Source: Bacteroidales bacterium (GTDB lineage: Bacteria; Bacteroidota; Bacteroidia; Bacteroidales; DTGW01). From it: a stretch of DNA of 64,000 nt. Positions 6,750 to 60,302 of this stretch are shown piece after piece. Location of the stretch: positions 5,408 through 69,407 of the forward strand of contig DAOSPF010000006.1 in assembly GCA_035374585.1 (NCBI GenBank), written 5' to 3'. A program made the position numbers and the translations under genes. How positions within the stretch are numbered: the first letter of the stretch is position 1; every line of letters starts with the position of its first letter. The notes beneath the pieces were generated by a model. It was not told the origin of the DNA. It worked only from the letters and a program-made list of their open reading frames with translations, and ran no database searches.

Positions 6750-7220
6750 TTATCTCCTTAGGGTTGCAATAATCCTTTTCGGATTTAACAACAGTTCGAG
6801 GGCATCGACAATGCTAAAACAAACAATATCGGCTGCCATAATGCTTTTGGCCGAAGCACCTTCTTTTTGTATTACGGCAATACTAAGCGCGCTGCTTTTG
6901 AGCATGAGGGCATCATTTGCCCCGTTGCCAATGGCAACTACATTTTCAGCGCCTAAGCTAATTGTATATTTTTCTTTCTGAATATCCTGCATAGATAGCC
7001 CCAATATCTCGATAGAACAGTTTAGGCCTGACAATTGGCCCTTAGCAGAGCCAAAAGTGTCAGCTGTCAGTACATAGATGTTTAACTTACTGCCTATTTG
7101 GCCGATGAGTTGCTTAACTCCATCTATAAGCTTGCCGTCTATGGCCAGTGTCCCGTTATAATCGAGTACCAGATGTGCCAGCTCTATTTTTTTATATCCG
7201 GGAATATCAATCGCTATCAT
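6750..7220 (-). CDS. HAD-superfamily protein, soluble P-type-ATPase-like (COG4087-like)
   Basis: 156 aa. Motif I LVLDYNGTLA (DxNGT), C-terminal GNGANDALML (HAD motif III), ending ...IIATLRR. Confidence 0.7.
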   Translation of the reverse strand: MIAIDIPGYKKIELAHLVLDYNGTLAIDGKLIDGVKQLIGQIGSKLNIYVLTADTFGSAKGQLSGLNCSIEILGLSMQDIQKEKYTISLGAENVVAIGNGANDALMLKSSALSIAVIQKEGASAKSIMAADIVCFSIVDALELLLNPKRIIATLRR

Positions 7221-7243
7221 ACTTTAATCAATTAAGGCAGATG

Positions 7244-8488
7244 TTATTTACTCAAAGACAGCCCGTAAGCAATGCTGTTGAAATTGTCGCCCATGCGGAT
7301 TTTATGAGGCCCAAACAACTTTTCGAAGATATCTCTGATGGGCACCACAGATGCGCTCCCTCCTGTAAGGAATACTGTATCAATATCGGCTGCCTTGACA
7401 TTTGCGTTCTCCATTAATGATAAAACGCAGTGTTCAATTTTATTGGTTTCGTTATTTATAAAGTTACGAAACTCTTCAAGGGTCATAAGTTCTCTGATGT
7501 TGATTATGTTGCGGGCAAACTCTACCATGGTTTCTGTTTTTGACGAAAGTTCAATTTTGGCTTTTTCTATCTGTTGAAAAAGGGCATATACAAGGTTGTT
7601 GTCTATAAGCGCCATTAAGTCTTCCAGCCTTTTGTCGCGGCCAGAAAATATGTAATAGTTGTTTAAGTCCCTACGGAGCTTGGTTTCTTTGAGAAGAAAT
7701 GAGCGTTCCCATTTTTTGAGCTCGTGGTGAATGGTGGTAGGCACGTCAAGCTCTTTGTTGTATGAAGCATATTTGACCCCTCTGCCCAGCAACGGGGTTA
7801 GTTTATGCCACATAGTCTGGGAGTCGAACATATCGCCGCCAATATAAAGCCCTCCGTTTGCAATTATATCTCCCTTGCGGTCTTCAGCGTTTATCCGGTC
7901 GGGGCCAAGTTCCATGATGGTAAAGTCGGAAGTGCCCCCTCCAAAGTCTGCTACCAAAACCCTCTCGTGCTGAGTCAAGGAGCTTTCATAAGAGAATGCT
8001 GCAGCTATAGGCTCGTAAAGAAGCTTTACGTCTTTAAAACCTGCATTGGAAGCAGCTTTAAGCAGTCTTTTGACAGCTATTTCTTCTTTTTCGGGGTCTT
8101 CAGAAAAAACAACCGGACGGCCAAGTACCACTTGTTCAATTTCGTGACCTATAGCCTTTTCGGCTTGCTGTTTGAAATGTTTAATAATTAAAGCAGCCAG
8201 TTCATCAGGTGTAAACCTTTTGCCAAAAATAAAAGTATGTATAAAGTTTTTCTGTTTTAACAATGTTTTTATCGATTTTAAAAGGCGGCCGCTCATATCT
8301 GAACTAACATATTCATTGATAGCTGCTTTTCCAACCGAATATACATAATCGTTCGTGTTTTTAAAATGCAACACTGAGCTGTCATTTTCTATAAAAATAC
8401 TTTTACGTGTATGAATATCTGTAATGGCAATAGCCGTGTTAGAGGTCCCAAAATCCAGCCCACACTGGTACTTATTCAAAATCATCAA
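7244..8488 (-). CDS. Hsp70-family ATPase, nucleotide-binding domain only (YegD-like)
   Basis: 414 aa. Phosphate-1 GLDFGTSNTAIA, phosphate-2 DFGGGTSDFT, adenosine motif VFLTGGSASVVPI. There is no substrate-binding domain. Confidence 0.85.
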   Translation of the reverse strand: MMILNKYQCGLDFGTSNTAIAITDIHTRKSIFIENDSSVLHFKNTNDYVYSVGKAAINEYVSSDMSGRLLKSIKTLLKQKNFIHTFIFGKRFTPDELAALIIKHFKQQAEKAIGHEIEQVVLGRPVVFSEDPEKEEIAVKRLLKAASNAGFKDVKLLYEPIAAAFSYESSLTQHERVLVADFGGGTSDFTIMELGPDRINAEDRKGDIIANGGLYIGGDMFDSQTMWHKLTPLLGRGVKYASYNKELDVPTTIHHELKKWERSFLLKETKLRRDLNNYYIFSGRDKRLEDLMALIDNNLVYALFQQIEKAKIELSSKTETMVEFARNIINIRELMTLEEFRNFINNETNKIEHCVLSLMENANVKAADIDTVFLTGGSASVVPIRDIFEKLFGPHKIRMGDNFNSIAYGLSLSK

Positions 8489-8506
8489 TAATACTTTTTA
8501 TAAAAA

Positions 8507-8974
8507 TTATTTTTTCCACAATTTAAAAGGGGATTTCAACAGGTTGGAATTATAATACCTTGCATCATCAGATACTTCCTTGCCAACCCATTGGGGCAGT
8601 TCAAATTGTTCGCCTTCAGAATCCAATTCTATTTCGGCCACAATAAGCCCTTCGTTGTCCCCAAGAAATTCGTCCACCTCCCAGGTTTTGCTTTTGTATG
8701 TGATGGTATAGCGTTTTTTTTCAATTACGCCATCGGCTAACTTGTTGATAATTTCGGCAGCTTCATTGGCAGGGATTGGGTATTCGTACTCTTCTCTCGA
8801 TATATTGACCGTTTTTCCTTTAATGGTGATAAACCCATTATCACCCATTACCCTTACACGGATTGTCTTGTCAATACTACTATACAAATAGCCCTGTATT
8901 ATCCTTTCACCTTTCCCTTTAGCAATATTCTGCCAGTTTTCTATATCGACAATAAATTTTCTTTCTATTTCCAT
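8507..8974 (-). CDS. CYTH-domain protein (triphosphate tunnel metalloenzyme)
   Basis: I place the start at MEIERKFIV (the ExExK motif of CYTH). The longer ORF, starting at 9064, would overlap the USP gene. Confidence 0.8.
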   Translation of the reverse strand: MEIERKFIVDIENWQNIAKGKGERIIQGYLYSSIDKTIRVRVMGDNGFITIKGKTVNISREEYEYPIPANEAAEIINKLADGVIEKKRYTITYKSKTWEVDEFLGDNEGLIVAEIELDSEGEQFELPQWVGKEVSDDARYYNSNLLKSPFKLWKK

Positions 8975-8985
8975 AAAGTCAGTGT

Positions 8986-9411
8986 CTATTTTCGGGCTAT
9001 TAGCACGTTGCATTTGGCATTTTCGCTTACTTTGTCTGTAACATGCCCCAAATCGTTGCCCCACAAGCCTGAGTGGCCTTTACAGCCCATCACTATCAAG
9101 TCAACATGGTTTTTTTCGGCATACTCAACTATCAATTTTGCCGGGTTGCCTTGCAAATGGGCATATTCTATTTCAATGCCTTCACTTTTTGATATATTGT
9201 GGAGGTCCTTTTTCAACTTGGCCGAAAAGCTGTCAATGGCTTTCGATTCTTCGTCAATTTCGGCCACAGTTTCGTGATAGTAGGCCCTGTACCCCCCAAT
9301 CCATAAAGCTGTCAACTTTGCTTTCATGGCCTTGGCAAATGCCAATGAATTGTTCAATGCTGTTTTGGCCCCTTCGGAACCGTCGTAAGCTACTAAAATG
9401 TGTTTGTACAT
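8986..9411 (-). CDS. universal stress protein (UspA family)
   Basis: 141 aa. MYKHILVAYDGSEGAK...DLIVMGCKGHSGL...GHVTDKVSENAKCNVLIA is a typical USP fold signature. Confidence 0.9.
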   Translation of the reverse strand: MYKHILVAYDGSEGAKTALNNSLAFAKAMKAKLTALWIGGYRAYYHETVAEIDEESKAIDSFSAKLKKDLHNISKSEGIEIEYAHLQGNPAKLIVEYAEKNHVDLIVMGCKGHSGLWGNDLGHVTDKVSENAKCNVLIARK

Positions 9412-9413
9412 GG

Positions 9414-10601
9414 TTATTTCCTCCTTTTTGTTATGTTTTTCTTACTCATTCTTCTAAGCCTGCCCCAGGCTATCATGGTATGTATTTCGGGTTGAAAGAA
9501 TTTTTGTGCTATGAGTGTAGGTATTATGGCGCTAAGAATTACTACTGTAACCAGGATGGTGTATTGTTTTTGGTCAATAAGGTGGTTGTTTAGCCCAAAC
9601 AATGCCGATATGGTGCCAAAGGTAAGGCCGGTGGCCATCAGCAGTGTGGTATAAGAAGATTCTTTTTTGCGCATCTGGAACGACCTTGCCAACGGATATA
9701 CCCCAATAAATTTGGTAACTATTTTAATAACCAGGAACAATGTAATAATGCCCAGCGAAACCCATATTAATGGCAGCGAAACGTACAAGCCGGCTTTCAT
9801 AAAGTAAAACGGGGTAAAAATGGTAAAGGCAATGGTACGCATACGGTCAACCAAGGTTTTGTCGCGCACAAATACCCCGGCCACAACTAAGCCTATTAAA
9901 TAAGCCGGAAGCACAGCTTCGCTCTTTGCTGTGGTGGCCAAACCTCCCAAAAAGAACAACACGAGCAGGATAAATTTCACCTCAGGCTGGCTTACTTTAT
10001 TTGTACCCAAATGTCCTATAAGGTATTTTGTCCATCGTGGCATAAACCAAAGCATAACGCACATTACAACAACAAAAGCCACCATCCAAAGGTTGAAATT
10101 GGCAAACAAAACGCCCAGGGCAAGCACTGTCCCAAAATCGGTAATAAAACAGGCTGCGAGTATCATTTTGCCCATGGATGTATCGCCAAGCTTTTTTTCA
10201 ATCATAACTGCATATACAACGGCAACAGATGTAGTAGATAATGCTATCCCGGCAATCTGGGCCTGGTGTATCCCCCAGCCAAAAACATACTGTGCAATGA
10301 GCCAAACACTGGCAAATGGAACAACAAAAGACAATATGCCAATAGCAAGACTGGCTTTTAAGTTTGCTTTTAGTGAAGCCGGGTCAATTTCAGCGCCCGC
10401 CAAAAAGGTTAGAACACCACTACCCAGCATGGCCAAAAAATCTATCCATTGGGTAGTTTGGTGGATGCCTAAAAAATTTCCGGCTATGACACCTACCAAT
10501 ATCTCGATAAGGGCAACAGAAATACCTACACGGATAGATATTAAGCTGGCCACTAAAGCCATGCCCATCCACATTGCTGCAATTAACCAAATGTTATCCA
10601 T
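9414..10601 (-). CDS. cation:proton antiporter (CPA/Kef-type Na+/H+ exchanger family)
   Basis: 395 aa polytopic membrane protein with the Na_H_exchanger-like helix pattern. It is 2 nt from the USP gene. Confidence 0.88.
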   Translation of the reverse strand: MDNIWLIAAMWMGMALVASLISIRVGISVALIEILVGVIAGNFLGIHQTTQWIDFLAMLGSGVLTFLAGAEIDPASLKANLKASLAIGILSFVVPFASVWLIAQYVFGWGIHQAQIAGIALSTTSVAVVYAVMIEKKLGDTSMGKMILAACFITDFGTVLALGVLFANFNLWMVAFVVVMCVMLWFMPRWTKYLIGHLGTNKVSQPEVKFILLVLFFLGGLATTAKSEAVLPAYLIGLVVAGVFVRDKTLVDRMRTIAFTIFTPFYFMKAGLYVSLPLIWVSLGIITLFLVIKIVTKFIGVYPLARSFQMRKKESSYTTLLMATGLTFGTISALFGLNNHLIDQKQYTILVTVVILSAIIPTLIAQKFFQPEIHTMIAWGRLRRMSKKNITKRRK

Positions 10602-10613
10602 AACACGTAATTT

Positions 10614-10982
10614 TTACCATTTAAAAAAACTTTTCTTTTCGCCTTGTTTGTAAAGGACTATGTTTGCTTTTTCCATAGTTATCATACAACCATAACGCAG
10701 CTTTTCAAACCAGGGGAGTATTTTCTCGGCAAACTTTTCAATCTTTTCCGATTCGTCAACTATCTCAATTACCACCGGGAGTTTTTCGGTAAATTCCCAA
10801 AATTTAATAGAACGCACCACGCTGCTTGACCCGTAGCCCATCACCCCTTTCAGCACGGTAGCCCCTGCCAGTCCATATCGTTTGGCTGCAAAAACAACCA
10901 TTTCGTACAGTAAGTTATGTTTGAATTTGTCGGTATTACTGATAAAAATCCGCAATAATTTGGCTTCTCCTTTTATTTCCAT
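10614..10982 (-). CDS. DUF190 (PII-like) protein, usual crcB partner
   Basis: 122 aa. LLRIFISNTDKFKHNLLYEMVVFAAKRYGLAGATVLKGVMGYG resembles DUF190. There is a 2-nt gap after crcB. Confidence 0.8.
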   Translation of the reverse strand: MEIKGEAKLLRIFISNTDKFKHNLLYEMVVFAAKRYGLAGATVLKGVMGYGSSSVVRSIKFWEFTEKLPVVIEIVDESEKIEKFAEKILPWFEKLRYGCMITMEKANIVLYKQGEKKSFFKW

Positions 10983-10984
10983 GG

Positions 10985-11362
10985 TTATATTATTTTAGTG
11001 ATTAGGTTTCCCAAATAAGTGGCCAAAATGCCAATAAAAACACTCAGGCTTGTATATAAAGCAAAATAGAAAATATTACCATCGCGAAGCAGCGCAACAT
11101 TCTCGTTGGCAAAAGTCGAAAATGTAGTAAACCCGCCACAAAAGCCAACCGTCAGGAACATGCGCAACTCTGAAGACATCGCGTTGCCCCGTTCTGAAAT
11201 GCCATAAAACAACCCAATAAGAAAGCAGCCAAGAATGTTGACAACAAATGTTCCGTAAGGAAAAGACGCAATAAAGGTATTTTGAATAAAACGTGAAGTA
11301 AGAAAACGTGAGATGCCCCCCAGGAAACTCCCCGAACCAATAAACAAAAGTATTTTTATCAT
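10985..11362 (-). CDS. crcB: fluoride channel CrcB/FluC
   Basis: 125 aa, 4 [12 protein letters not shown]...[12 protein letters not shown] are CrcB signatures. It is immediately downstream of riboswitch 1. Confidence 0.93.
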
Positions 11363-11400
11363 ATATCCTGCATACTTTAAGGTTAAACAATAAAGTCATA

Positions 11401-11448
11401 CAGGAGTTATCAGCTTATTTAAGGCGGTTCGAGGCTAACCCCATAGCC
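11401..11448 (-). promoter_or_regulatory. fluoride riboswitch (crcB motif), copy 1
   Basis: The minus strand reads GGCUAUGGGGUUAGCCUCGAACCGCCUUAAAUAAGCUGAUAACUCCUG, ending 38 nt before the crcB AUG. The segment in between can form UCCUG...ACUUUA/UAAAGU...CAGGA, which competes for the aptamer 3' strand. Confidence 0.85.
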
Positions 11449-11454
11449 AGACAC

Positions 11455-11462
11455 CAAAGGTA
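11455..11462 (-). promoter_or_regulatory. Bacteroidota -7 promoter box TACCTTTG for riboswitch 1
   Basis: TACCTTTG lies 6 nt upstream of the aptamer 5' GG and just downstream of the preceding gene's stop (11472). Confidence 0.45.
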
Positions 11463-11471
11463 GGAAAAAAA

Positions 11472-11969
11472 TTAAAAACGGAAAGCTATTAATAGCTCAT
11501 TTGTAGAATAATACCCCGTATGCCTGAAAAACTCTTTACCTTCTTTATCTAAAAGCACTTGTGAAGATATGGCTGCAATGCCAAAGTATTTCATCAACCG
11601 CTGATTTTCGGGCAGCATGATGTTTATAAAGATTACGTTTACGCGGTCGGGGAAGCGGGCCTTTATTTCGGCCATAACCTGTTCCATACGTTTGCAGGCC
11701 GAACAGCCTTTTGCCCCAAATTCGAGAAATGTAAACTGGTAGCTTAGCCCATTTTTAGCGTAGTTGTAGGCCGAATCGACAAAAGCCGGTACCGAGTGTT
11801 GAACTTCGGGGCCAGCTTGTGTTTTAATGGCTTTTGATGCGTAATTGTTTAATGTATCTTTGAATACGAAAAGCAGGACAAAAAACAATACCGACAGCAC
11901 CATAAAAGCCGCCGACAGCGCCTGTTTTGTTTTAGAAGTCAACCGCAGCCTTTTCATAAACAGCTTCAA
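11472..11969 (-). CDS. membrane-anchored thioredoxin-family protein
   Basis: 165 aa. N-terminal TM helix, then FGAKGCSACKRM (CxxC) and a Trx-fold C-terminus. Confidence 0.75.
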   Translation of the reverse strand: MKLFMKRLRLTSKTKQALSAAFMVLSVLFFVLLFVFKDTLNNYASKAIKTQAGPEVQHSVPAFVDSAYNYAKNGLSYQFTFLEFGAKGCSACKRMEQVMAEIKARFPDRVNVIFINIMLPENQRLMKYFGIAAISSQVLLDKEGKEFFRHTGYYSTNELLIAFRF

Positions 11970-36176: not shown

Positions 36177-36956
36177 TCATTTTTCTTTTTCAATGAAATG
36201 CTTTAATGCTCTTCTTAGCGCTTCATTAAAAAAAGTCCAATCATGGTTGCCTTGCCAGTCTTCAAAAACAGGATCATATCCTAAGCTTTGCAATGTAGCA
36301 AAATACCTTTTGTTATCACCATAAAAAAAGTCTTCTGTTCCGCAGGTTATATATAACTTAGGCTTTGTTGTTTTATCTTTTGTTTCTTTGGCCAGTTCTA
36401 TCACGTCTTCACGCGGATCCCATTCAATATTTTCGCCAAATACAGCCTGAAAGTCTTTAAACAAGGCTTCACCAAACAGTTCTTTGAATCTTTTGGCTCC
36501 TTCGCAATACTCAAGAGATTCTTTGAGCATTAAACAGGGAGAAGAAAAAGCTCCGCAAAAACCATATTGCTCAGGTTTTGATAAGGTACATTTCAAAGCT
36601 CCGTATCCTCCCATTGAAGCTCCAATAATGGCTATGTCTTCTTTTTTTGCCGATATTTTAAAAATACTGTTGCACATTAAAGGGAGCTCTTCGGTGATGT
36701 AACTGAAATAATTCAGGCCGTACTTCATGTCCGAATAGAAACTGCGGGCTACTTCAGGCATAACAAATATTGCATGATATTCTTTTGAGTAATTGGGCAA
36801 CAGGGTATAGTCAACCCAATCTCCGCTTCTTCCGCATATCCCATGCAACAGATATACTACTTTATAGGGCTGACCTGAAAAATTATCAGGAGCTACAAAG
36901 GTAATATTGGTTTCTATCTCCAATTTACCTGAAAAAAAGGTGCCTCGTAAAATCAT
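36177..36956 (-). CDS. esterase-family alpha/beta hydrolase (esterase D-like)
   Basis: 259 aa. Nucleophile elbow GASMGG, and the HGxxG-like LLHGICGRSGDW. Confidence 0.8.
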   Translation of the reverse strand: MILRGTFFSGKLEIETNITFVAPDNFSGQPYKVVYLLHGICGRSGDWVDYTLLPNYSKEYHAIFVMPEVARSFYSDMKYGLNYFSYITEELPLMCNSIFKISAKKEDIAIIGASMGGYGALKCTLSKPEQYGFCGAFSSPCLMLKESLEYCEGAKRFKELFGEALFKDFQAVFGENIEWDPREDVIELAKETKDKTTKPKLYITCGTEDFFYGDNKRYFATLQSLGYDPVFEDWQGNHDWTFFNEALRRALKHFIEKEK

Positions 36957-37076
36957 ATTGTTTCGATTAATATTTTACTTATTATTAGACTTACAAAAAT
37001 ATTTATAGTTCACACTTGCTTTTAGTGTTACCCTTATTCTTAAAAGTAAATTTCTTATAATTCTTTTTTTGACAAG

Positions 37077-37313
37077 TTTAAATATATTGAAATACAATTA
37101 CATATAGTTAAAATATGAAGGTAAAAAGCAACGTAGTTGCTACCTCTTTGCAGTCAATAAAATTGCCATAGTCATCAGGTGTGCAGCACCGATATAGCAT
37201 ATAATATATTTCGCCACTACGTGGCTTAATATTTACGAACAACATTTTTCTATAAAGATTTCGCCGCTAAGCGGCTAATAGCAAGGGTTAACTAATCTGT
37301 CAAAGTAGAATTA
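37077..37313. repeat. left arm of a ~235-bp inverted repeat flanking the T9SS gene
   Basis: Reverse complement of 41209..41441. A 91-bp core (AAAAGCAACGTAGTTGC...ATATATTTCGC) is identical. The inner part has a few substitutions, and the outer ~45 bp has indels. Confidence 0.92.
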
Positions 37314-37426
37314 AGTATTTTCTAATATTTAATTAGGGTTAAAGTAAAATTGAGCTGTTGGTATCATGTTTAAAAATGCTTAACAAATGATTGTGTTTAT
37401 GAAAGACTCTGCAACCCAGGAACAAA

Positions 37427-37456
37427 ACAAAAAAAGCGGAACCTATTGAGCTCCGC
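37427..37456 (-). terminator. intrinsic terminator after the T9SS adhesin gene
   Basis: GCGGA...TCCGC stem flanked by an A-run and a T-run (bidirectional shape), 26 nt after the stop. Confidence 0.7.
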
Positions 37457-37481
37457 TTTTTTGCTTTATAAGATGATAAGA

Positions 37482-40400
37482 TTATTTCTTAACAACTTTT
37501 TGAGTTGTAGAGCCATTAGCAGTTTGGATTTTTACAAAATAAACCCCATTTTTCAATCCTGAAAGGTTGAGTTCAACGCTATTGCCATTAACACTGGCAA
37601 TACGGTTAAGTTGGCCAGACATGCTGTATATAGCAACTGTGCTGATGGTTTCGTTACTGCGAATGTTTAATACATCTACAACAGGGTTAGGGTAAACCGA
37701 AAGACTTGCAATAGAAGCATTGTTAATGCTGGTTTGACCTGTGATAGTAACAGTAAATGTAGCTTTTACGCCAGAAGCATCAGTAGCTGTGGCTGTTACT
37801 ACTACTGTACCATTAGCAACAGCAGTCAATACTCCTGTTTTTGCATCAATAGTAGCAATGGCCGTATTGTCAACACTCCATTTAACAGCAGTGGTTGTCG
37901 CATTGGTAGGAGTTACTTTAGCTGTTAAGGTTGTAGTTCCTTTGGCTGTTGTAATAGAAGACTCACCGCTGATTTCGATCTTTGTTACAAGAACAGGAGT
38001 GAAGAATTCCATTTTACCAATGTAAACAACATAGCCTTTAAGAGCTGACCAGTTAGCTGTTGATTGGGCTGCAAGCTGAAGCATGCTAAATGTTGTATCT
38101 ACTAAAGTTGATGTCAACTCCTTAATGGTTGTAGAAGCAGGATTGTCGGTAATAGCTTTGTTTTTCTTGAAATCACCCGGGGCTAACTGAATAAATGCCT
38201 GAACTGCATCAGTTTTGGTAACAGTGTCTTTGTCATATTTGTAAGAGAATTTCACTGTTGAGTATGACTTAGCAACTACCGGTTCGATGGCAAATGCTGT
38301 GCCCCAACCGTTAACCCTGATTTTTAAGTAATCTTTGTTGTTAATTTTAACAATCTCGCCTCCGTCAGGCACTTTGCCTTCAAATGTAGTCATGTTGAAA
38401 GGATTGGTGAATTCCATCTGGCTGATGTAAACAACATAGCCTTTAAGGGCAGACCAGTTAGCTGTTGATTGAGCTGCAATCTGAAGGTTTACAATCGTAT
38501 CAGCTTGTAATTTAGCTGTAACCGTTTTGAAAGTTGTAGAAGCAGGGTTTTCAGTAAATGCTTTTTTGCTTACAAAACCGCTATCGGCAAATTGGATAAA
38601 GGCTTGAACAACATCAGTTTTAGTAACTGTGTCTTTATCGTATTTGTAAGTAAATTTAGCGGTAGAATTTGAATAAGTAACAACAGGTTCAACAGCTATT
38701 GTTGTATTCCAGCCATTTACGCGTACTTTCAAATATTTTTTACCTTCAATGGTATCAATAGTAGCTCCGGCAGGAAGGTCGCCTGCAAATGTAGCTAAGT
38801 TGAACAATACCTGGTTAGAAGCGGTAATTCTGATAGAGTCTTTCTTTGCTCCTTCATTGCTGGTAACATAAACCATAAAGCTGCCATTTTTGGTACCATT
38901 GGCTTTTACAACACCTTTATTGCTAACTGTAGCAATAGTAGCATCGCTTACACTCCATGTTACGTTGGTATTAGTTGCGTATGATGGATAAACATTAGCC
39001 TTTAACTCAATAGAACCTTTTCTTGTGGTAATAGTAGTGTCATTATCAAAGGTTAGTTTAACACTGTCAACAAACACTTCCTGGTAAACGATAATAATGG
39101 TTTTTTCGGCTTTAATAGTACTGTTACCTGCAGCTACAACTTTAAGTATGGCATAGCCGTTGGCTAAAGATGTGATTGTAGAATCTGCCGCATTGATAGA
39201 TGCTGTAGTAACTGCATTACCGGTGCTGTCAACTAAACTTGAAATATAAGTTAATGTATCAGCATCGGCAGGGCTTATAGAAGCAAAAAATTTGGCCGGG
39301 CCATTAGCCGCTCTTATGGTGTCCGGGGCTGTAATAGTAATACCTGCAACAGGTACAACCTGGTTGCTGATAGCAATGTCTTGTGTAGCAGAGAAACCTC
39401 CGTCAACAGAAACAGCTTTTACTTTAACTGTTGCATTACGAACTGCTGTAAGCAACCCTGTAGCTGAGATAGTAGCAGTATCGGCGTTTTGATTAACCAG
39501 GCTCCATGTTACACTTTTGTTACTTGCATCTTCAGGGGTAAACACAGCTTCCATTTGCAATGTGCCGTTGTCGGTTGTGATAGTGTTTACATTGTTAGCG
39601 CCCCTAATTGTCAATGCGTTAACTGGTTTGTAAGTTGAACCATCTCCGGCAATAAAGGTTATAGAGTCAATATAGAAGGTATAACCTAATGAGTCGGCAT
39701 TAGGAGGGGTAACCCTGCTGTATGTTGCTTTTGGAGAATTCATTTTGATATAGAACTGGCCATCAGCAGCCATAGCAGGGTCAATAACATACTCGTACTC
39801 TGTCCATGTGGCTTTGGTGATTCCTGTAGCGGTGTATTTTTCAGCAATACTGTTATTGATGTTCATTGCAAATTGGAAATCAACATAAGCAGAGTCTGAA
39901 TATACTTTAAACTTAATCCTGTTGTATTTGTTGAGGTCAATAGCCGGTGTCTTAACTGCTGCAGCATAACGGTTGCATTTTTCTACTTTCAGTACTTTGT
40001 CTGATGAATTTCCTACTTTATTAGGGTTGTCAACTATCGTGACAGTTGGGGCAGGTGTGCCAGCGCCATTCCATCCGCCCTGGGTTTGGTTAGGATTGAT
40101 ACCGTTTTCAAAATTGGCCTGTACCATTGATGTCCCTACAACAGGGTCAGATATTGTAAAAAACAGGGTGTCGCTTACGTTGGCATCTAATGTGCTGGTG
40201 GCATAAATTTTCACAGCGCCGGCCTTTAGTGCAGTTACTACACCGGCAGAGGTAACTGTTGCAATAGTGGCATCTGAGGTACCATAGGTAACTTGCGAAC
40301 CTGCTGTGGCTGGTTCTACTGTTAAGCTTGTTGTTATTTTTTTACCTACAATAGGCGTTAATGTTGCAGCAGATAAAGTGATTTTGGTAGGTGGGGTTGA

Positions 40401-40916
40401 TGGCTTGGCTACAATTTTTATATTGTCGAAAAGTAAGTTTGTAGCAACAGTATTATTCTGAAGGGCAATTTGTGTTATTGAAACAAATGTACCAAAGTTG
40501 GTAGAATTGGTCAAGTCCACTTCATAATGTTTCCAAGCCCCGGCATTAGTAGATGGGTAGAAACCCTTTGAAACATCTGAATTACTGGCATTTTTGCCAT
40601 ATACATTGACAATGAAATTTACTGCTCCGGTAGGGTCGTAAACATCTAAAGTTACTTTTTGGTAATCTGCGATGTTTACATTTAATCCACCTTTGGCAAC
40701 ACCTTGATATTGGGCTGTTGTTACAACCTGCAATACCTTGTCAGAATTGTTGTCTGTGTTTTTTAGAGGATTGCTGGCATTTGTAACTGTTCCACCCCAA
40801 GTTACCCATGAGTTGACAGTTCCATCCTCAAAATCGCCCAGATTGATATCTGCGGCAGCTTGCGCGAAGCTTGTAGCGATAAAAAACGCTACCAGAAAAA
40901 TAAATAGTTTTTTCAT
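37482..40916 (-). CDS. large secreted surface protein: CBM-like beta-sandwich modules, several Big_2 (Ig-like) domains, T9SS C-terminal sorting domain
   Basis: 1144 aa. Signal peptide MKKLFIFLVAFFIATSFAQA. Repeated ...ATVTSAGVVTALKAGAVKIYATS-type Big_2 units. C-terminus LSVYPNPVVDVLNIRS...NGVYFVKIQTANGSTTQKVVKK. Confidence 0.85.
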   Translation of the reverse strand: MKKLFIFLVAFFIATSFAQAAADINLGDFEDGTVNSWVTWGGTVTNASNPLKNTDNNSDKVLQVVTTAQYQGVAKGGLNVNIADYQKVTLDVYDPTGAVNFIVNVYGKNASNSDVSKGFYPSTNAGAWKHYEVDLTNSTNFGTFVSITQIALQNNTVATNLLFDNIKIVAKPSTPPTKITLSAATLTPIVGKKITTSLTVEPATAGSQVTYGTSDATIATVTSAGVVTALKAGAVKIYATSTLDANVSDTLFFTISDPVVGTSMVQANFENGINPNQTQGGWNGAGTPAPTVTIVDNPNKVGNSSDKVLKVEKCNRYAAAVKTPAIDLNKYNRIKFKVYSDSAYVDFQFAMNINNSIAEKYTATGITKATWTEYEYVIDPAMAADGQFYIKMNSPKATYSRVTPPNADSLGYTFYIDSITFIAGDGSTYKPVNALTIRGANNVNTITTDNGTLQMEAVFTPEDASNKSVTWSLVNQNADTATISATGLLTAVRNATVKVKAVSVDGGFSATQDIAISNQVVPVAGITITAPDTIRAANGPAKFFASISPADADTLTYISSLVDSTGNAVTTASINAADSTITSLANGYAILKVVAAGNSTIKAEKTIIIVYQEVFVDSVKLTFDNDTTITTRKGSIELKANVYPSYATNTNVTWSVSDATIATVSNKGVVKANGTKNGSFMVYVTSNEGAKKDSIRITASNQVLFNLATFAGDLPAGATIDTIEGKKYLKVRVNGWNTTIAVEPVVTYSNSTAKFTYKYDKDTVTKTDVVQAFIQFADSGFVSKKAFTENPASTTFKTVTAKLQADTIVNLQIAAQSTANWSALKGYVVYISQMEFTNPFNMTTFEGKVPDGGEIVKINNKDYLKIRVNGWGTAFAIEPVVAKSYSTVKFSYKYDKDTVTKTDAVQAFIQLAPGDFKKNKAITDNPASTTIKELTSTLVDTTFSMLQLAAQSTANWSALKGYVVYIGKMEFFTPVLVTKIEISGESSITTAKGTTTLTAKVTPTNATTTAVKWSVDNTAIATIDAKTGVLTAVANGTVVVTATATDASGVKATFTVTITGQTSINNASIASLSVYPNPVVDVLNIRSNETISTVAIYSMSGQLNRIASVNGNSVELNLSGLKNGVYFVKIQTANGSTTQKVVKK
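37998..38810 (-). repeat. in-frame tandem duplication (2 x ~405 bp) inside the T9SS gene
   Basis: Modules FNLATFAGDLPAGATIDTIEGKKYLKVRVNGW...ANWSALKGYVVYISQMEF and FNMTTFEGKVPDGGEIVKINNKDYLKIRVNGW...ANWSALKGYVVYIGKMEF. Stretches are near-identical at DNA level (TGTAAACAACATAGCCTTTAAG.GC.GACCAGTTAGCTGTTGATTG). Confidence 0.85.
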
Positions 40917-41208
40917 AATTAATTTGTTTGTTTATGCCTTTCGGCTTAGTTAGTGAATAAGTATTTAGTTGAATAAAAAACATAGTGTATGTGTGAGTAC
41001 GAGTATTTCTTAGTTTGTATTTTTAGAAAACTTTCTTTTATCTAAACGAACCAAAAATATGAATTAAAGACCCTAAAGGTTATGAACAATTATTGCACAA
41101 AGGAGGATTATTCTGTCATATTGACAATTATATTATTATTCAAGGGATAGGATAGGAATAGGAATAGTGTTTTATGTTAACGAACTGTTTTAATGCATTT
41201 AACAAAGC

Positions 41209-41441
41209 TAATTCTACTTTGACAGATTAGTTAACCCTTGCTATTAGCCGCTTAGCGGCAAAATCTTTGTAGAAAAGTGTTGCTCGTAAATATTAAGCTA
41301 CCTAGTAGCGAAATATATTATATGCTATATCGGTGCTGCACACCTGATGACTATGGCAATTTTATTGACTGCAAAGAGGTAGCAACTACGTTGCTTTTTT
41401 ACTTTCATATTTATATATAATTGAATTTCAATATATTTAAA
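41209..41441. repeat. right arm of the ~235-bp inverted repeat flanking the T9SS gene
   Basis: See the left arm. On the plus strand it ends with AGCAACTACGTTGCT plus TTTTTT (a hairpin and T-run pointing away from the cassette). Confidence 0.92.
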
Positions 41442-41656
41442 AAGTAGAACTAATTTTTTATTGTTTTAGTTATTGTATTTTCAAAAAAATCGTGGTTGAC
41501 ATTTTGCCTTTTTTAAACAACTTCTGTAAAATATGAAAGTGTATTTGTTAAAAATACTATAATGTAAAATGCACAATTTCAACAAGATTTACCTCCGGTT
41601 GATAGTGTGGTGTTATCTAATTTAGTATATTTATATTGACTAAACCTAAAACGCTC

Positions 41657-42115
41657 ATGGAAATAAAATATCAACTTTTTGAGGCTGAAAACTTATTGGT
41701 ACAAAAGTACAGCGGCCAATTTTCAATGGAAGAATTTGCGGCTTATGCCCGTTTTAGCGGGATGAATTTTGCTTCAAAACCAATAAAAAAGGTTTTGCTC
41801 GATTTTAGAGACTTGCACATGGGTAACTACGAAGATTTCAACGAAACGCTGGATAAAGTCATCAAGGTGCGAGAACAGGTCAACGAAAATGAGTTTAAAA
41901 ACAGGGCAGTGACTTTTGTTATTTGGGTCGAAAAACCCATGCCTACTGCTGTGGCACATCTTTTTACGGCCAACTTTTCTGGCAAAAATTATCACTATGC
42001 CCTCACTGTCGATAGTATTGTTGATATATTGAAACTCCCGCAACACCTTAGGAATGTAGAGAAGATTGTTGAAAATGCCGAAAATACTTTTTATGCGGAC
42101 AATACTAAAATTTAA
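41657..42115 (+). CDS. hypothetical protein
   Basis: ORF with ATG at 41657 (MEIKYQLFEAENLLVQKYSG...). I recognise no family with confidence. Confidence 0.45.
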   Translation: MEIKYQLFEAENLLVQKYSGQFSMEEFAAYARFSGMNFASKPIKKVLLDFRDLHMGNYEDFNETLDKVIKVREQVNENEFKNRAVTFVIWVEKPMPTAVAHLFTANFSGKNYHYALTVDSIVDILKLPQHLRNVEKIVENAENTFYADNTKI

Positions 42116-46503: not shown

Positions 46504-48714
46504 TTATTGTTTTATAAATTTCTTTTTAATTCCACTTACGTTAATCATATAAACACCTGAATTAAGAGAATGTACATCTACCATTGTTTTTCCTGAGAAA
46601 TTTTCTTCGTACACCATTTTTCCTGTTAAATCGTATATTTGTACATAATGCGGCTTTCCATCAGCAATGTCAATAGTAATAAACGTTGTAGCAGGATTTG
46701 GCTTAATGGTTATTTTATTTACATTTTCAGCAATGGTAGGTATTTCTTTAGCTTTAACAACTATGTTAAATTCTTTAGACAGAGTGTCTGGACCAATATG
46801 AACAAGTGCTTTTATTGTTACATTTTTTGAATAGTTAAATGGGCGTGTTACTATTCCTGAGTTTGATACAATAGAAGTGTCGTCCGATTGCCAGATAATT
46901 TTTGTACCTTCTCCAAGAGTGCTGGTCAGTTGTAAATTTGAGACAATACCAGTAGAGTCTTCATTAGAAGCAATACCCAATGCCGATATCGTCATGCTGT
47001 TTATTAATCTTTGTAATGTTTCCAATCTGGATTCGGGTTTAACTAAAACCTTATAACCTTTGCATAATACTGTATCTTCAAGTGGTACCGTGGCAATTAA
47101 ATCAACGCAGGTATCTTTATGCATCCAATTGAACCTCTTTATATTTCCATCAGGAAGTAACAAGGATTTATCTTTGGTATCCCATGAAATTGAAAATTGG
47201 TTGTTATAAAAACTCTTGGCCAAAGCATACTTTGAAAAGGCAATATTATCTGAATAGTTTGTAACTCCTAAAATTTTACTCTTGTCAGACAATGAATCCA
47301 AAACAATTTGATAATAATATTGCCTTGCATTCAGTACTACCAACCATCTTGAAACTTCTTTGGCAGCTTTGTAAATTGAATTACCTTCCTGACGGGCTGT
47401 AACTTTTGTGATACCGGGTATTCCTTTTAGGATGCATTTAGAGCCTGAATTAAAAGCAATATTGGCATTTTCAATGCTAAAATTTACATCCAGTCCTGAA
47501 GTTGCAAAAGCTTTTAAATCAAAAGCACTATCGTTTACAGATTTATATAGAATTGAATCAAACGTAACAGATTGCGGTAAGCCCTTATTGCTAAATGAAA
47601 CCGGGATTTTTCCATCTGTATAACCAATGTGCCAGCTTTTTTCATGGTTTGCCGAATACCATACTTTATAATAATATCCCGAATCGGTCCGGTATGATTG
47701 AAATGTAGGGCGGTATAATTTTGTATCCCATTGTCTGTAATTAATGGCATTGTTAAGGATAGGCGTTTTAAACTCAAGGTCTATTATGTTGGGGGTATCC
47801 ATGTGGCATTGTGCAAAAATGATACATGCCACGTTATATACATTTTCGTAACTACTTGTGCGTGCGGCAATCATAAATTCTATTCTTTTCTCAAAATAGT
47901 TGGGTTTGCACGCAATATGCCAGCTATAAAAACCACTAGAATCTAAAGCATATTTGTTGCTACTGTTTTTACATAAGGTTTCTTCTTCCCAATGTATCCC
48001 ATCGCTACTAAAACAATGGACTAAACGGTTGGGTTTCAAAATGTAAACACCCCAGAAAAGCCATTTATTAGATGCTTCTCGCCAAAAACATGGTGATACA
48101 ATTGTTGCAATATCGCGTGGTTTATATAATTTTACAGTTTCTGGTTCAGTTGACTCTCCATTTTCTTTTATCCGTATCAGTTTTATGGCTCCATATATTG
48201 AATCTTTTCCAACAATAATCAGCCCCCGGTACATATAATATAACCAGATTTCGTTTACATCAGGATTATAAACTATATCAACATCGCAATTATTGCCTGT
48301 TGGAGGAGTGCCTGTTAAAGGAAACTTAAACCCCGTGGGGATTATCCAATTCTTGCCGTCATTGCTTGCGGCTATACATGGGTTTTCTACTAATGCGTTT
48401 GTATTATAGTATGGAGTATAGGCCATCCAGTAACGGTAACCTCCCCATGTCCCACTTGTGTTGACTTCTTTCTGAAAATCAATAATTGACGGGTGCACAG
48501 CTTCTGAAGTTGAATCCGGGGTCGGAAATTGCATTGGAAATTCGGCATTTTGCAATATGGATGATGCCCCTAATGCTTTTGTACTTTTTAAATTTGAAAT
48601 TGTAAATTTTCTGAAATTATCAATAGTGTCAGGGTTGAGTTGTGCTTGATTTTTGTTGTTTAACCCTATTAAAAAAAATGATAGTAGTAATTGACAGTAA
48701 AATAAGCGTCTCAT
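46504..48714 (-). CDS. secreted protein with beta-propeller glycosidase-like N-terminal region and T9SS C-terminal sorting domain
   Basis: 736 aa. Signal peptide. HPSIIDF...WGGYRYWMAYTPY...ENPCIAASNDGKNW. C-terminus IKPNPATTFITIDI...SGVYMINVSGIKKKFIKQ. The gene is AT-rich. Confidence 0.78.
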   Translation of the reverse strand: MRRLFYCQLLLSFFLIGLNNKNQAQLNPDTIDNFRKFTISNLKSTKALGASSILQNAEFPMQFPTPDSTSEAVHPSIIDFQKEVNTSGTWGGYRYWMAYTPYYNTNALVENPCIAASNDGKNWIIPTGFKFPLTGTPPTGNNCDVDIVYNPDVNEIWLYYMYRGLIIVGKDSIYGAIKLIRIKENGESTEPETVKLYKPRDIATIVSPCFWREASNKWLFWGVYILKPNRLVHCFSSDGIHWEEETLCKNSSNKYALDSSGFYSWHIACKPNYFEKRIEFMIAARTSSYENVYNVACIIFAQCHMDTPNIIDLEFKTPILNNAINYRQWDTKLYRPTFQSYRTDSGYYYKVWYSANHEKSWHIGYTDGKIPVSFSNKGLPQSVTFDSILYKSVNDSAFDLKAFATSGLDVNFSIENANIAFNSGSKCILKGIPGITKVTARQEGNSIYKAAKEVSRWLVVLNARQYYYQIVLDSLSDKSKILGVTNYSDNIAFSKYALAKSFYNNQFSISWDTKDKSLLLPDGNIKRFNWMHKDTCVDLIATVPLEDTVLCKGYKVLVKPESRLETLQRLINSMTISALGIASNEDSTGIVSNLQLTSTLGEGTKIIWQSDDTSIVSNSGIVTRPFNYSKNVTIKALVHIGPDTLSKEFNIVVKAKEIPTIAENVNKITIKPNPATTFITIDIADGKPHYVQIYDLTGKMVYEENFSGKTMVDVHSLNSGVYMINVSGIKKKFIKQ

Positions 48715-52402: not shown

Positions 52403-52526
52403 CCTAACACAAATTTACCTAGAAAACCCTTTAAAGGATTCGTATTTCTTTGTCAAATTTACCTGTAATAAACCTTGATTACAATCTTTTCTTATTAGAA
52501 TAAGATTAGAATACATTGTTGTCTGG

Positions 52527-52690
52527 TACAAACAGGTCGCCGCTATGCAGCTTAGGAACATTTGGTGTATTGGGTTATCCTACAAACTGGTCGCAGCTAC
52601 ACTGCTATTATTTGGTCGCGTAGCGACGTTTTGTTTGTAGTAATTTAAACATCGTTAAAATAAAGCCCCGGCGGGGCGACCAGTTTCTAA
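52527..52690. repeat. nested-palindrome hairpin repeat cluster (MITE/REP-like)
   Basis: Outer imperfect IR AAACAGGTCGCC / GGCGACCAGTTT. Inner palindrome CTACAAACTGGTCGC...GCGACGTTTTGTTTGTAG. Short-loop hairpins GTCGC-GTA-GCGAC and GCCCC-GGC-GGGGC. Confidence 0.65.
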
Positions 52691-52799
52691 TCAACAATAT
52701 AACTAGTATTTATTGTATCTGTTTTATTTTACCGGACAACATTGATTAGAATGTTTAAAACATAGAATGTTTTATATGAGATTCTGAGTCTGATTACTT

Positions 52800-58110: not shown

Positions 58111-60302
58111 ATGTTTCAAAAATTGAATAAGATAGTTAGGCAAGGTTTGGGCACAAAATATATCTTGATGTTAAGAATGGGTTGGATAAAGAAGTGTATT
58201 AGTTTCAATGAACAACTCACGGTTGACAAGCGGATTGCAAATCAGGTAGTGGCTATACTTGCTGTTACTGCTTTATTTTCTGGAATTTTAAATATAATGA
58301 TGGGCTTCCCGTGGTGGTTTACGGTGTTAATATTGGGGGCTATTGTTTTATCGGTACTTTATATCGCCCTGTCTGTCATTAAAACTAAATTTGTAATTCC
58401 CAAAGCGGCTCTTATTGTTGCATTATATGTTGTAGTTATATTGTTGTGGCTATATAATCCTGGTTTAAGCAAGGCTCCGGTGATTTTATCTTTTGCTATT
58501 ATTGTTTTTAGTATTGCTATTTATGTTAAAAATTTTGTTCTTCTTTTTCTTTTAAACTTTATAATCGTTACATCATTAGTTGTTATAGGAGTTTTGTTCC
58601 CGCCATTATTTTCTTTTTCTTACAAAAATGAGATACATCGGGTTGTAGATGTTTTAGGCTCTTATTTTTTGCTTGGGATGTCTGTAGTTTTAATCCTTAG
58701 GTCAATTATAAACAGCTACATAAAGGCAAAAAATGATTCGGAACAACAAAAATGCCAGCTTGAGGCAGCTAATACCCAACTGCAAATCTTGAATGAAAAG
58801 TTGAGGGCTATCAATAATGAGCTTGTCGATGCAAGGGCAAAGTTATTGGAAAATGAAGAAAAGTTGCAGACCATTTTTAATAACCTGCATTTACTTATAT
58901 GTATTGTTGATTTGAAAACTTCGGGCTTTGTTAATATAAATCCTGAGTTTACCGACATTCTGGGTTATTCGCATGAAGAATTACTCAACAGGCCTTTCTA
59001 TGATTTTATACATCCCGATGACAGGCAGAAAACGGCTTTTGTAATAGAAGACGTACTGCTTAAGGGGAAAATGGTAATTTCTTTTACCAATCGTTATCAA
59101 TCTAAGGGGGGGGCTTATCGCTGGTTTAACTGGAATGCATTCCCTGCGCTGGAAAAAGGAATTGCTTATGCAGTGGCAATTGACATTACTGATTTGATGA
59201 AAACCGAGCAAGCCCTTAAAGAAAGCAATGAACTGCTGACGTTGTTTATCAAAAATTCGCCCATATATGCTTTTATTAAAGATGTCAAGAAAAAGAAAGC
59301 CGGGTTATTTTTGCCAGTGACAATTTTATTGACATGATTGGTGTCAATGGGGCTGATATGGTGGGTAAAACTATGGAAGAATTGTTTCCCTTTGAGTTTG
59401 CCCGCAAAATATCTATGGACGACTGGATGGTGGTACAGTCAAATCAGGTTATCAACGTGGATGAAAATCTGAATGACCGGAATTATACTACTTTCAAATA
59501 TCCTATTTTGTTAGGAGAAAGAAACCTGCTTGCCGGCTATACCATTGAAATAACCGAAAGGATTAAAGCCGAGCATTTAATTAATGAACAGAATGCAGAA
59601 CTTAAAAAACTAAATGCCGATAAAGACCGCTTTATTTCTATCCTTGCTCATGACCTTAAAAACCCTTTCAATGCACTTCTCGGATTGTCAGATCTTATTT
59701 TGAAAAATATAGATACTTATAATATTGATAGAACCAAGTCTTTGATTGTTTATATTAACCAAATTGCACAGAATACCTATGATTTACTTAATGACCTGCT
59801 GGCCTGGTCTAAAAATCAGGCAGGCATGTTGCCTTTTATGCCCGAAAAGATTTTGCTTGCAGATATTTGCAACGAAATTATTGATAATTACAAAATATCA
59901 TTTGAAACAAAAGAGATTGTAGCAGAATATGCCGGAGATTGCGGCATTTACGTTTATGCAGATGTTTTTATGCTCAAAACTATTGTCCGCAACTTACTTG
60001 CTAATGCTATTAAGTTTACCAATAAAGGGGGGCATATTAACATAAAGACTGAAATAAAAGATAAAGAAGCCTTAATTACTATTTCAGATAACGGTATAGG
60101 CATAAGTAGTGAAAATATGGCAAAGCTTTGGGGGCAATCTTGCCAGTTTTCTACGGTCGGGACCGCCAAAGAAGAAGGTACTGGATTTGGGCTGCTTTTA
60201 TGTAAAGATTTTGTTGAAAAGCACGGTGGTAAAATCATCGTCAAAAGTGAAGTTGGCAAAGGGAGCGATTTTCAGTTCAACATCCCTTTATATATTGAAT
60301 GA
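58111..60302 (+). pseudogene. membrane PAS-PAS sensor histidine kinase interrupted by a frameshift in an A-rich run (~59287..59298)
   Basis: ORF 58111..59337 ends in the middle of a PAS domain (...IKNSPIYAFIKDVKKKK). The -1 frame is open from 59280 and continues ...ESRVIFASDNFIDMIGVNGADMVGKTMEELFP through the H-box (LAHDLKNPFN) and HATPase_c. Confidence 0.75.

Follow-up and report, generated by a model that had tools for sequence, protein, structure and literature searches.

The mobile elements of Porphyromonas gingivalis offer the closest described counterparts to the locus reported here. MITE239 is a 239-bp element that carries the terminal inverted repeats (TIRs) of the IS5-family element ISPg3, inserts in and between genes, and differs in presence and absence between strains (PMC2575886, PMC4596501). 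All MITEs of P. gingivalis derive from IS5-family elements (PMC4596501). Composite transposons framed by a pair of insertion sequences, such as TnPg17, are also known in Bacteroidales (PMC2575886). Inverted repeats are likewise found at invertons, where repeats of 10-40 nt with recombinase-binding motifs enclose promoter or gene segments that occur in both orientations, and surface proteins are the class most often under inversion control in Bacteroidales (PMC11892184).

Our 64-kb window (the whole stretch of DNA that was analysed) contains two inverted copies of ~240 bp each on either side of a gene for a 1144-aa Big_2 and T9SS-sorted protein (Table 1). The source organism is an uncultured Bacteroidales that has been seen in several metagenomes. 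We interpret the arms as two copies of a ~240-bp non-autonomous MITE, which arrived in separate events and in opposite orientations to the left and right of a T9SS gene already in place (estimated probability ~0.75). The units resemble MITE239 in their Bacteroidales host, length (238-250 vs. 239 bp), non-coding content and short TIRs, as well as in their intergenic placement and their presence or absence between relatives. However, the termini are unrelated (ACGTGAGTTCGA... in MITE239, Table 2 of PMC4596501, vs. TTCTACTTT... here). MITE239 also reaches 5-14 copies per genome and its parent insertion sequence is known, compared with two known copies and no known parent in our case.

Table 1. 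Features of the inverted-repeat locus (positions in the 64-kb window)
Feature	Position	Strand	Basis or remark
Esterase-family gene, pointing away from left copy	36177..36956	-	Pfam Esterase 3.1e-21
Left element, outer flank	37057..37060		ATAA; 3/4 positions match inner flank
Left element copy, 250 bp	37061..37310	+	Global alignment with right copy
Perfect core, 92 bp	37123..37214		Reverse complement of 41308-41399
Left element, inner flank	37311..37314		TTAA; putative target-site duplication
Intrinsic terminator hairpin of T9SS gene	37430..37462	-	14 pairs, then T run
T9SS gene, 1144 aa, secreted, signal peptide	37482..40916	-	Pfam Big_2 3e-33, Por_Secre_tail 1.7e-15
Conserved 5' region of T9SS gene	40917..41131	-	Three-genome alignment
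Right element, inner target-site duplication	41208..41211		CTAA on + strand; TTAG in element orientation
Right element copy, 238 bp	41212..41449	-	Missing from orthologous intergenic region of L011/L012
Right element, outer target-site duplication	41450..41453		CTAA on + strand
152-aa ORF, divergent from T9SS gene	41657..42115	+	Called gene in L001/L003

Inverted repeats around a surface-protein gene had been described at this locus in an earlier note, and were confirmed. A repeat search of the window paired 37103-37313 with 41209-41419 (211 nt, 92% complementary) and, further out, 37077-37106 with 41412-41441 (30 nt, 93%). The arms matched each other at 93.3% across 238 columns in blastn (E = 8e-100), and 225 of 251 columns were identical when the complete units were aligned globally. 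In that alignment the longest perfect run was 92 bp, one more than the 91 bp given earlier; seven substitutions fell within 37215-37262 and none within 37263-37310, and all three indels (8, 5, and 1 bp) were located in the outer 60 bp of the arms. A 49-nt core probe hit two places in the window, namely the two arms, against an expectation of 0 (100 shuffles). The arms themselves are real, but the limits originally proposed for them (37077-37313 and 41209-41441) were redrawn to those in Table 1, because the empty site in a relative and the TIRs place the ends of the unit. The same note had placed a complete 1144-aa T9SS gene with its terminator inside the repeats, and ORF, sorting domain, and hairpin were all located there; the upstream sequence within the bracket, put at ~290 bp, measured 295 bp from the ATG to the right arm.

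The right copy stands out as a bounded insertion: it ends in terminal inverted repeats and is flanked by a target-site duplication. In the closest relative (L011/L012; product 88% identical), the 5' region of the T9SS gene directly abuts the 152-aa gene. Window positions 42074..41452 and 41213..37429 correspond to contiguous L011 sequence (7071-7693 and 7690-11483), with the arm as the sole extra DNA. This extra DNA amounts to 242 bp, i.e., the 238-bp element plus the duplicated 4-bp target (TTAG). At base level, the window reads AAATTAG, then TTCTACTTT...AAAGTAGAA, then TTAGCTTTG, and the L011 counterpart is AAATTGGCCTTG; once the element and one TTAG copy are removed, the window aligns to this empty site without a gap. 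TTAG stands on both sides of the right copy, and a single TTGG occupies the relative's empty site. L011 and L012 both lack precisely the element and one copy of the duplication. The two ends of the right copy, TTCTACTTT and AAAGTAGAA, are perfect inverted repeats of 9 bp and lie exactly at the boundaries of the empty site, for which the chance expectation is ~4^-9 per position. The right copy combines four features of a MITE (a size within ~50-1000 bp without a transposase gene, TIRs, a target duplication, and a precise empty site), in line with the earlier suggestion of two copies of a MITE-like element. With one outgroup, insertion here and precise excision in the relative are formally indistinguishable, and the unit is mobile either way.

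With regard to the left copy, its 3' end (TGTCAAAGTAGAA) is intact and the same as that of the right copy. Its 5' end (TTCTTTTTTTGACA) is degenerate, has 8 extra nt relative to the right copy, and, set against the reverse-complemented 3' end of this copy, agrees at 11/14 positions (one gap). Given the identical 3' end, the degenerate 5' end, and the flanks ATAA and TTAA (3/4), we infer that the left copy probably arose in the same way as the right copy. Elements of the IS5 group produce a 4-bp duplication at a YTAR target. TTAG at the right copy and TTAA at the left inner flank fit this pattern, with one clean duplication only. Unlike in the IS5 group, no transposase gene or full-length element with TTCTACTTT termini was found in the window or its flanks.

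The ORFs in the arms reach 25-47 aa at most, which leaves no coding capacity, and their translations had no homologue among 5.8 billion proteins. No Rfam family matched the arms and the fold of the whole element was not unusual when compared with shuffles (z = -0.7 and -1.5), and the arms are therefore unlike a structured RNA gene. Elements of the IS200/IS605 palindrome-associated or REP/BIME type, which lack TIRs and target duplications and in which a Y1 transposase works on subterminal hairpins, were considered and rejected, since TIRs and a duplication are present here and the small internal hairpins of the arms are not subterminal; no Y1 transposase gene was found in the window.

Copy number is the weak point of the MITE reading, as both known copies are at one locus. 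Copies of the core beyond the two arms, the search for which had been proposed earlier, did not turn up in the ~80 kb covered of this genome, nor did a single 20-mer reveal any in public collections. Specifically, no further arm copy was present in the other ~76 kb covered (window, L014, and L018) or in the DNA fetched for the relatives' loci (L011-L013). The core 20-mer had no true match, and one chance match, in 185,579 species genomes, and none in metagenome and viral collections; the metagenome negative is weak because that collection does not hold the source contig itself. Plasmid and phage collections gave no match to the element. Pfam searches detected neither a transposase nor a recombinase gene across the 64-kb window and ~16 kb of flanks, and a scan for the termini returned noise only, with no cognate insertion sequence in the window or flanks. 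Two known copies 3.9 kb apart require either local hopping or a larger family that is unseen.

The product of the enclosed gene has four Big_2 (Ig-like) stretches and a type A C-terminal sorting domain (TIGR04183, 9.6e-16), and its PDB sequence matches comprise Ig-like domains and the T9SS sorting domain only. Homology with L011 continues through the terminator to 37429. The 5' region carries TAnnTTTG at 41059..41052, a Bacteroidota-type motif that we take as a putative promoter, and a palindrome (TGTCATATTGACA) at 41114-41126; it is 91% identical between the window and L013, compared with ~85% for the coding part. Orthologues in L011/L012 and L013 have the same 5' region and terminator, and no arm in the fetched DNA. 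The region of the 152-aa ORF, which had no Pfam or NCBIfam match, shares 84% nucleotide identity with L011 7071-7693, where it is also the syntenic neighbour of the T9SS gene. Homologues of the esterase gene sit in unrelated contexts, with no synteny with the T9SS gene in relatives. The T9SS orthologues occupy three neighbourhoods in three close relatives (window, L011/L012, and L013).

Taken as a MITE, the unit would be a ~240-bp element with short TIRs (consensus about TTCTACTTT(GACA)) and no coding capacity. It would have inserted into AT-rich intergenic DNA on both sides of a gene that was already resident. Its movement would depend on a DDE transposase supplied in trans by a cognate insertion sequence at another genomic site, and the closeness of the two copies may reflect local hopping. 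The gene retains its own conserved, putative promoter region and its terminator inside the bracket. If the arms are MITE insertions, the inverted-repeat 'cassette' is a by-product and not a device. Homologous recombination, and likewise assembler breaks, would most probably take place at the 92-bp core. The inverted homology (92 bp perfect; ~240 bp at 90%) could permit a rare RecA-dependent inversion of ~3.9 kb, and none was observed.

Several other origins were weighed against this reading, and all appear unlikely. The best placed is a local inverted segmental duplication, produced by template switching or repair, with the copy in the relative lost by deletion between short repeats. It would be consistent with only two known, adjacent copies and with an empty site that depends on a single outgroup. 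Template switching, however, copies adjacent sequence and not a bounded unit, and the unit here has a perfect 9-bp terminal repeat at the exact empty-site boundaries together with a direct 4-bp flanking repeat. Moreover, the arms are ~10% different and carry three indels, so that neither can be a fresh copy of the other.

Slightly less credible is that the MITE pair turns the gene into a 4.4-kb module that can be mobilised or inverted, with a transposase acting on the outer ends or recombination acting on the core, which would add to the unusually fluid context of the gene.

We find it improbable that both inverted copies and the gene move as one 4.4-kb composite transposon. Such a unit would account for the three neighbourhoods of the gene, and the outer flanks (ATAA and CTAA) agree at 3/4 bases; the arrangement also recalls TnPg17-type composites, in which two inverted mobile-element copies bracket cargo (PMC2575886). 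Nevertheless, the armless relative keeps the gene beside the same 152-aa neighbour, which indicates that the gene was resident before the right arm arrived, and L013 lacks the arm as well. Homology among relatives stops inside the bracket (41131/41213 and 37370/37429) rather than at the outer ends of the arms. The right copy also owns a perfect 4-bp duplication. In contrast to TnPg17-type composites, the units here are non-autonomous, have their own flank duplications (3/4 for the left), and enclose cargo that pre-dates the right copy.

Selection on two copies of a functional cis element (leaders, small RNAs, or insulators for the esterase, 152-aa, or adhesin gene) seems very improbable. The two flanking genes are directed outward from the arms, and each arm holds four G+C-rich hairpins of 5-6 bp, one of which has a compensatory stem change between arms (GCCAC..GTGGC vs. 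GCTAC..GTAGC), as well as an outward-facing hairpin followed by a T run. By our own estimate, the 92-bp mutation-free core exceeds the length expected if 15 differences were spread uniformly (p ~0.02). Yet the orthologue of the 152-aa gene manages without the element, and neither Rfam nor the comparison with shuffled folds points to a structured RNA. Terminator-like hairpin and T-run matches were no more common than in shuffles (8 vs. 5.3 +/- 2.4), and these weak matches are all that we found for the insulating elements proposed earlier. Two loci of one genome that are 90% identical point to a recent shared origin or to gene conversion rather than to constraint, and regulatory elements are not characterised by terminal repeats or a target duplication.

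The least probable reading is a phase-variable inverton, in which a site-specific recombinase, perhaps a distant one, flips the 3.9-kb segment to turn the adhesin on and off: the inverted repeats beside a surface-protein gene are real, as at Bacteroidales invertons, and global invertases can work from a distance (cited in PMC11892184), but repeats of 238-250 bp (vs. 10-40 nt; PMC11892184), the lack of a recombinase gene in the 64-kb window and ~16 kb of flanks (a distant global invertase aside), a right arm that inserted recently and duplicated its target site, and a single assembly orientation all speak against the invertible cassette raised in the earlier note. The conserved 5' region with TAnnTTTG lies inside the segment and is also present in armless relatives; flipping would leave the putative promoter and the gene coupled, which disfavours the related idea that inversion switches the gene off. 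Here the repeats enclose a whole gene with its putative promoter and terminator, and only one orientation was seen. The right arm is crossed in this same orientation by four independent assemblies from different samples (the source contig, L022, L023, and L026). Two assemblies span the whole cassette in the reference orientation, with the caution that a minor orientation is masked in a consensus assembly. Contig L004 of another sample stops at the core edge, and L027 starts inside the 92-bp core; the arm pair explains these breaks of short-read assemblies at the locus.

Our preferred reading, two separate MITE insertions, brings in a MITE family that had not been characterised, which has TTCTACTTT(GACA) at its termini and duplicates 4 bp at TTAG, in an uncultured Bacteroidales. 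It also calls for caution, as long inverted repeats around a Bacteroidota surface-protein gene can mimic a phase-variation device where, as is likely here, two small elements have inserted. Should it be true that the pair mobilises or inverts the gene, the locus would be a simple example of MITEs rendering a resident gene movable as a cassette.

The inverted repeat that the earlier note had described around the surface-protein gene is real and far beyond chance. The repeat search of the window returned inverted arms of 211 nt (92% complementary) and a second, outer pair of 30 nt (93%), blastn aligned arm with arm at E = 8e-100 (93.3% over 238 columns), and a 49-nt core probe matched only the two arms within the window, where 0 matches were expected. 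In the global alignment of the full units, 225/251 columns were identical; the longest perfect run was 92 bp (37123-37214 = 41399-41308), seven substitutions fell between 37215 and 37262, the inner 48 bp were perfect, and the three indels all lay in the outer 60 bp. With ~10% divergence and three indels between the two, neither copy is a recent duplicate of its partner. Also borne out was the claim that the repeats enclose a complete gene with its terminator and upstream DNA: the ORF is 1144 aa long, its product has four Big_2 stretches together with a T9SS sorting domain of type A, and 295 bp separate its ATG from the right arm.

Features of the window and of related loci (window coordinates unless a locus is named)
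Feature	Location	Strand	Size
Left copy	37061-37310		250 bp
Right copy	41212-41449		238 bp
Inverted arms, repeat search	37103-37313 / 41209-41419		211 nt
Outer inverted pair, repeat search	37077-37106 / 41412-41441		30 nt
Target-site duplication, right copy	41208-41211 and 41450-41453		4 bp
ORF in left arm	37108-37245	-	45-47 aa (both arm ORFs)
ORF in right arm	41277-41420	+
T9SS gene	40916..37482	-	1144 aa
T9SS-gene orthologue, L011	7995-11429
T9SS-gene orthologue, L013	3101-6520
Terminator of T9SS gene	37462..37430	-
Internal direct repeat of T9SS gene	37995-38294 and 38400-38699		405-bp period
5' region of T9SS gene	40917-41131		~215 bp
TAnnTTTG motif	41059..41052
Palindrome TGTCATATTGACA	41114-41126
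Left-side genes: FeoB, cation-efflux protein, peptide-release-factor-like protein, HrpB, esterase
Right-side genes: 152-aa ORF, 174-aa ORF, YbaK-like protein, NUDIX protein
Second T9SS-sorted protein gene	46504-48714	-	736 aa
Hairpin-rich intergenic stretch	52520-52700
PAS-domain gene end	59146-59249 (L020 3147-3156)		104 bp (L020 10 bp)
Fluoride riboswitches	1878-1940; 11394-11457	-

Orthologues of the T9SS gene were found in related genomes, namely P0122 (88% identical; loci L011 and L012) and P0123 (82%; locus L013). The 152-aa gene beyond the right arm with its upstream DNA (42074..41452) corresponds to L011 7071-7693, and the T9SS 5' region, coding region and terminator (41213..37429) to L011 7690-11483; in both L011 and L012 these flanking blocks are contiguous and the right arm is the only DNA missing. 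Read in element orientation, the junction in the window is AAATTAG, then TTCTACTTT ... AAAGTAGAA, then TTAG CTTTG, and the empty site in L011 is AAATTGG CCTTG. When the 238-bp unit is removed together with one TTAG, window and L011 align without a gap; the right copy is therefore a bounded unit with a perfect 9-bp terminal inverted repeat, placed exactly at the empty-site boundaries, and a 4-bp target-site duplication (CTAA on the + strand). Such a terminal repeat and duplication are the signature of DDE-type transposition.

The element has no coding capacity, and the concatenated stop-free arm translations had no homologue at E <= 1. No Rfam family was detected in the arms, either at the gathering threshold or at E <= 10, and arm folds on either strand were not better than those of shuffles; on these two grounds a structured RNA was rejected. 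Together, the lack of coding capacity and of an Rfam family and the unremarkable overall fold identify the element as MITE-like. The suggestion of two MITE-like copies, one of several in the earlier note, is supported by the empty site, terminal repeat and target-site duplication of the right copy. Each arm does hold an outward-reading ORF with three cysteines (…YRCCTPDDYGNFIDCKEV…), one with a GTG start; the inter-copy differences are all non-synonymous, gene callers left both uncalled, no homologue was found, and this is probably not a gene.

The 3' end of the left copy, TGTCAAAGTAGAA, is identical to that of the right copy and is followed by TTAA. Its 5' end, TTCTTTTTTTGACA, preceded by ATAA, is longer and degenerate, matching the reverse complement of the copy's own 3' end at 11/14 positions. 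No empty site for this copy was found among the relatives because homology stops short of the arm, at 37429 with L011 and at 37370 with L013. We infer that the left copy represents a second insertion. Duplicative inversion (replicative intramolecular transposition) was rejected because the flank duplication of the right copy is direct, not split.

With regard to the parent, IS5-group elements produce a 4-bp duplication at TTAG/TTAA, and the same pattern here makes an IS5-family element our best guess. The closest analogue is MITE239 of P. gingivalis, a 239-bp element with IS5-family ISPg3 termini, 5-14 copies and strain-variable insertions (PMC2575886, PMC4596501). The MITE239 termini (ACGTGAGTTCGA...) bear no relation to those of the arm element (PMC4596501), so identity was rejected; the arm element belongs to another family of this kind.

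No third copy was present in ~80 kb of the same genome. An exact 20-mer search gave one chance match among species genomes (a G+C-rich Bryobacterales coding region) and 0 matches among viral contigs and metagenome contigs, the latter a weak negative since the source contig is missing from that collection; blastn against plasmids and phages gave no match. The scan for full-length elements with the same termini gave noise only, no cognate insertion sequence was seen in the termini and Pfam scans, and neither a recombinase nor a transposase gene occurs in the 64-kb window or in ~16 kb of flanks. One stretch, flanked by genes for a histidine kinase and a DUF6438 protein, was considered as a diverged third copy (nhmmer E = 0.02) and rejected, its Smith-Waterman scores lying inside the shuffle distribution. 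It is rich in hairpins, with several 5-bp G+C stems (e.g., GCCCC-GCC-GGGGC, GTCGC-TAC-GCGAC) and an 11-bp inverted repeat (AAACTGGTCGC/GCGACCAGTTT), and resembles the arms' hairpins only superficially, without significant similarity. That both known copies lie only 3.9 kb apart suggests, as a conjecture, local hopping.

The source contig of the window is a 165.6-kb JGI metagenome contig (3300010345, Ga0116253_10000109); the same strain (99.8-100% identity) recurs in the MAG GCA_036567665.1, which is fragmented, and in several further samples. Samples with this strain comprise JGI 3300010345, 3300010347, 3300025720 and 3300010342, SRR4236788, and the runs underlying ERZ27257438 and ERZ27257440. 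Among named protein homologues, the nearest come from Bacteroidales MAGs. The neighbourhood of the bracketed gene is ordinary chromosome. Esterase homologues (73-81% identity) lie in unrelated contexts, and synteny from the esterase led to no related loci. The T9SS gene itself occupies three different neighbourhoods (window, L011/L012 and L013; orthologues 82-88% identical) that have only the 152-aa ORF in common, and this only between the window and L011/L012. Its internal direct repeat (72% identity), consistent with tandem Ig-like domains, gives cross-matches in the orthologues too. The second T9SS-sorted protein gene, with an atrophied Big_2 domain and a Por_Secre_tail, lies 5 kb away and has no surrounding repeats. 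Elsewhere in the window, two fluoride riboswitches scored 44 and 48.5 bits, above the Rfam gathering score, one upstream of a crcB / DUF190 / Na-H-exchanger operon and the other just past enolase, preceding a 73-aa ORF and a gene for an MFS transporter; the strain in sample 3300010347 (locus L020) has 10 bp instead of 104 bp at the end of the PAS-domain gene, giving a shorter product (357 vs 408 aa).

Compared with L013, the 5' region of the T9SS gene is 91% identical vs ~85% for the coding region, and this conservation suggests a long functional leader. The three-genome alignment shows in it a conserved TAnnTTTG motif, which we take to be a putative Bacteroidota -7 promoter element; transcription would be expected to start ~130 nt upstream of the ATG, a short way downstream of the motif. 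A perfect palindrome ~200 bp upstream of the ATG, where the conserved block of window, L011 and L013 has its distal edge, could be a regulator-binding site; L013 has a 36-nt inverted match at the equivalent position, and a cNMP-binding (Crp/Fnr-like) protein gene lies near the orthologue in L011.

A phase-variation switch acting through inversion between the arms, one of the readings in the earlier note, is not supported. Inverton repeats measure 10-40 nt (PMC11892184), far from the ~240 bp of the arms, and the searched region holds no recombinase gene. Because the TAnnTTTG-bearing 5' region lies inside the bracket, between arm and ATG, and is kept in arm-less relatives, the promoter almost certainly lies on the gene side of the right arm, and inversion would not silence the gene. 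Contigs from four independent assemblies (the source contig, L022, L023 and L026) all traverse the right arm in one orientation, two of them spanning the entire cassette, and none has an inverted junction, with the caveat that a minority orientation could hide in consensus assemblies. Other contigs that break inside the arms (L004, L024, L025 and L027) say nothing on inversion because such breaks arise at any exact inverted repeat. A perfect core of 92 bp suffices in length for RecA-dependent exchange, and it is possible that a rare, functionally neutral inversion occurs across it.

A regulatory or insulator role of the arms is likewise not supported. They contain four small G+C-rich hairpins, one with a compensatory inter-copy difference (GCCAC/GTGGC vs GCTAC/GTAGC), and each has a weak outward-facing hairpin with a T run; however, terminator-like matches are no commoner than in shuffles and the orthologue of the 152-aa gene does without the element, which speaks against the insulators once suggested. 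Compensatory changes can also come from templated correction of quasi-palindromes, and we regard the arm hairpins as belonging to the element. Nor is a composite transposon uniting arms and T9SS gene supported: the gene does occur in three contexts, but the relatives carry no arm, the gene already adjoined the 152-aa ORF when the right copy inserted, and homology stops inside the bracket, not at the arms' outer ends. The two MITE-like copies are a clean example of how a MITE pair can mimic an invertible cassette.
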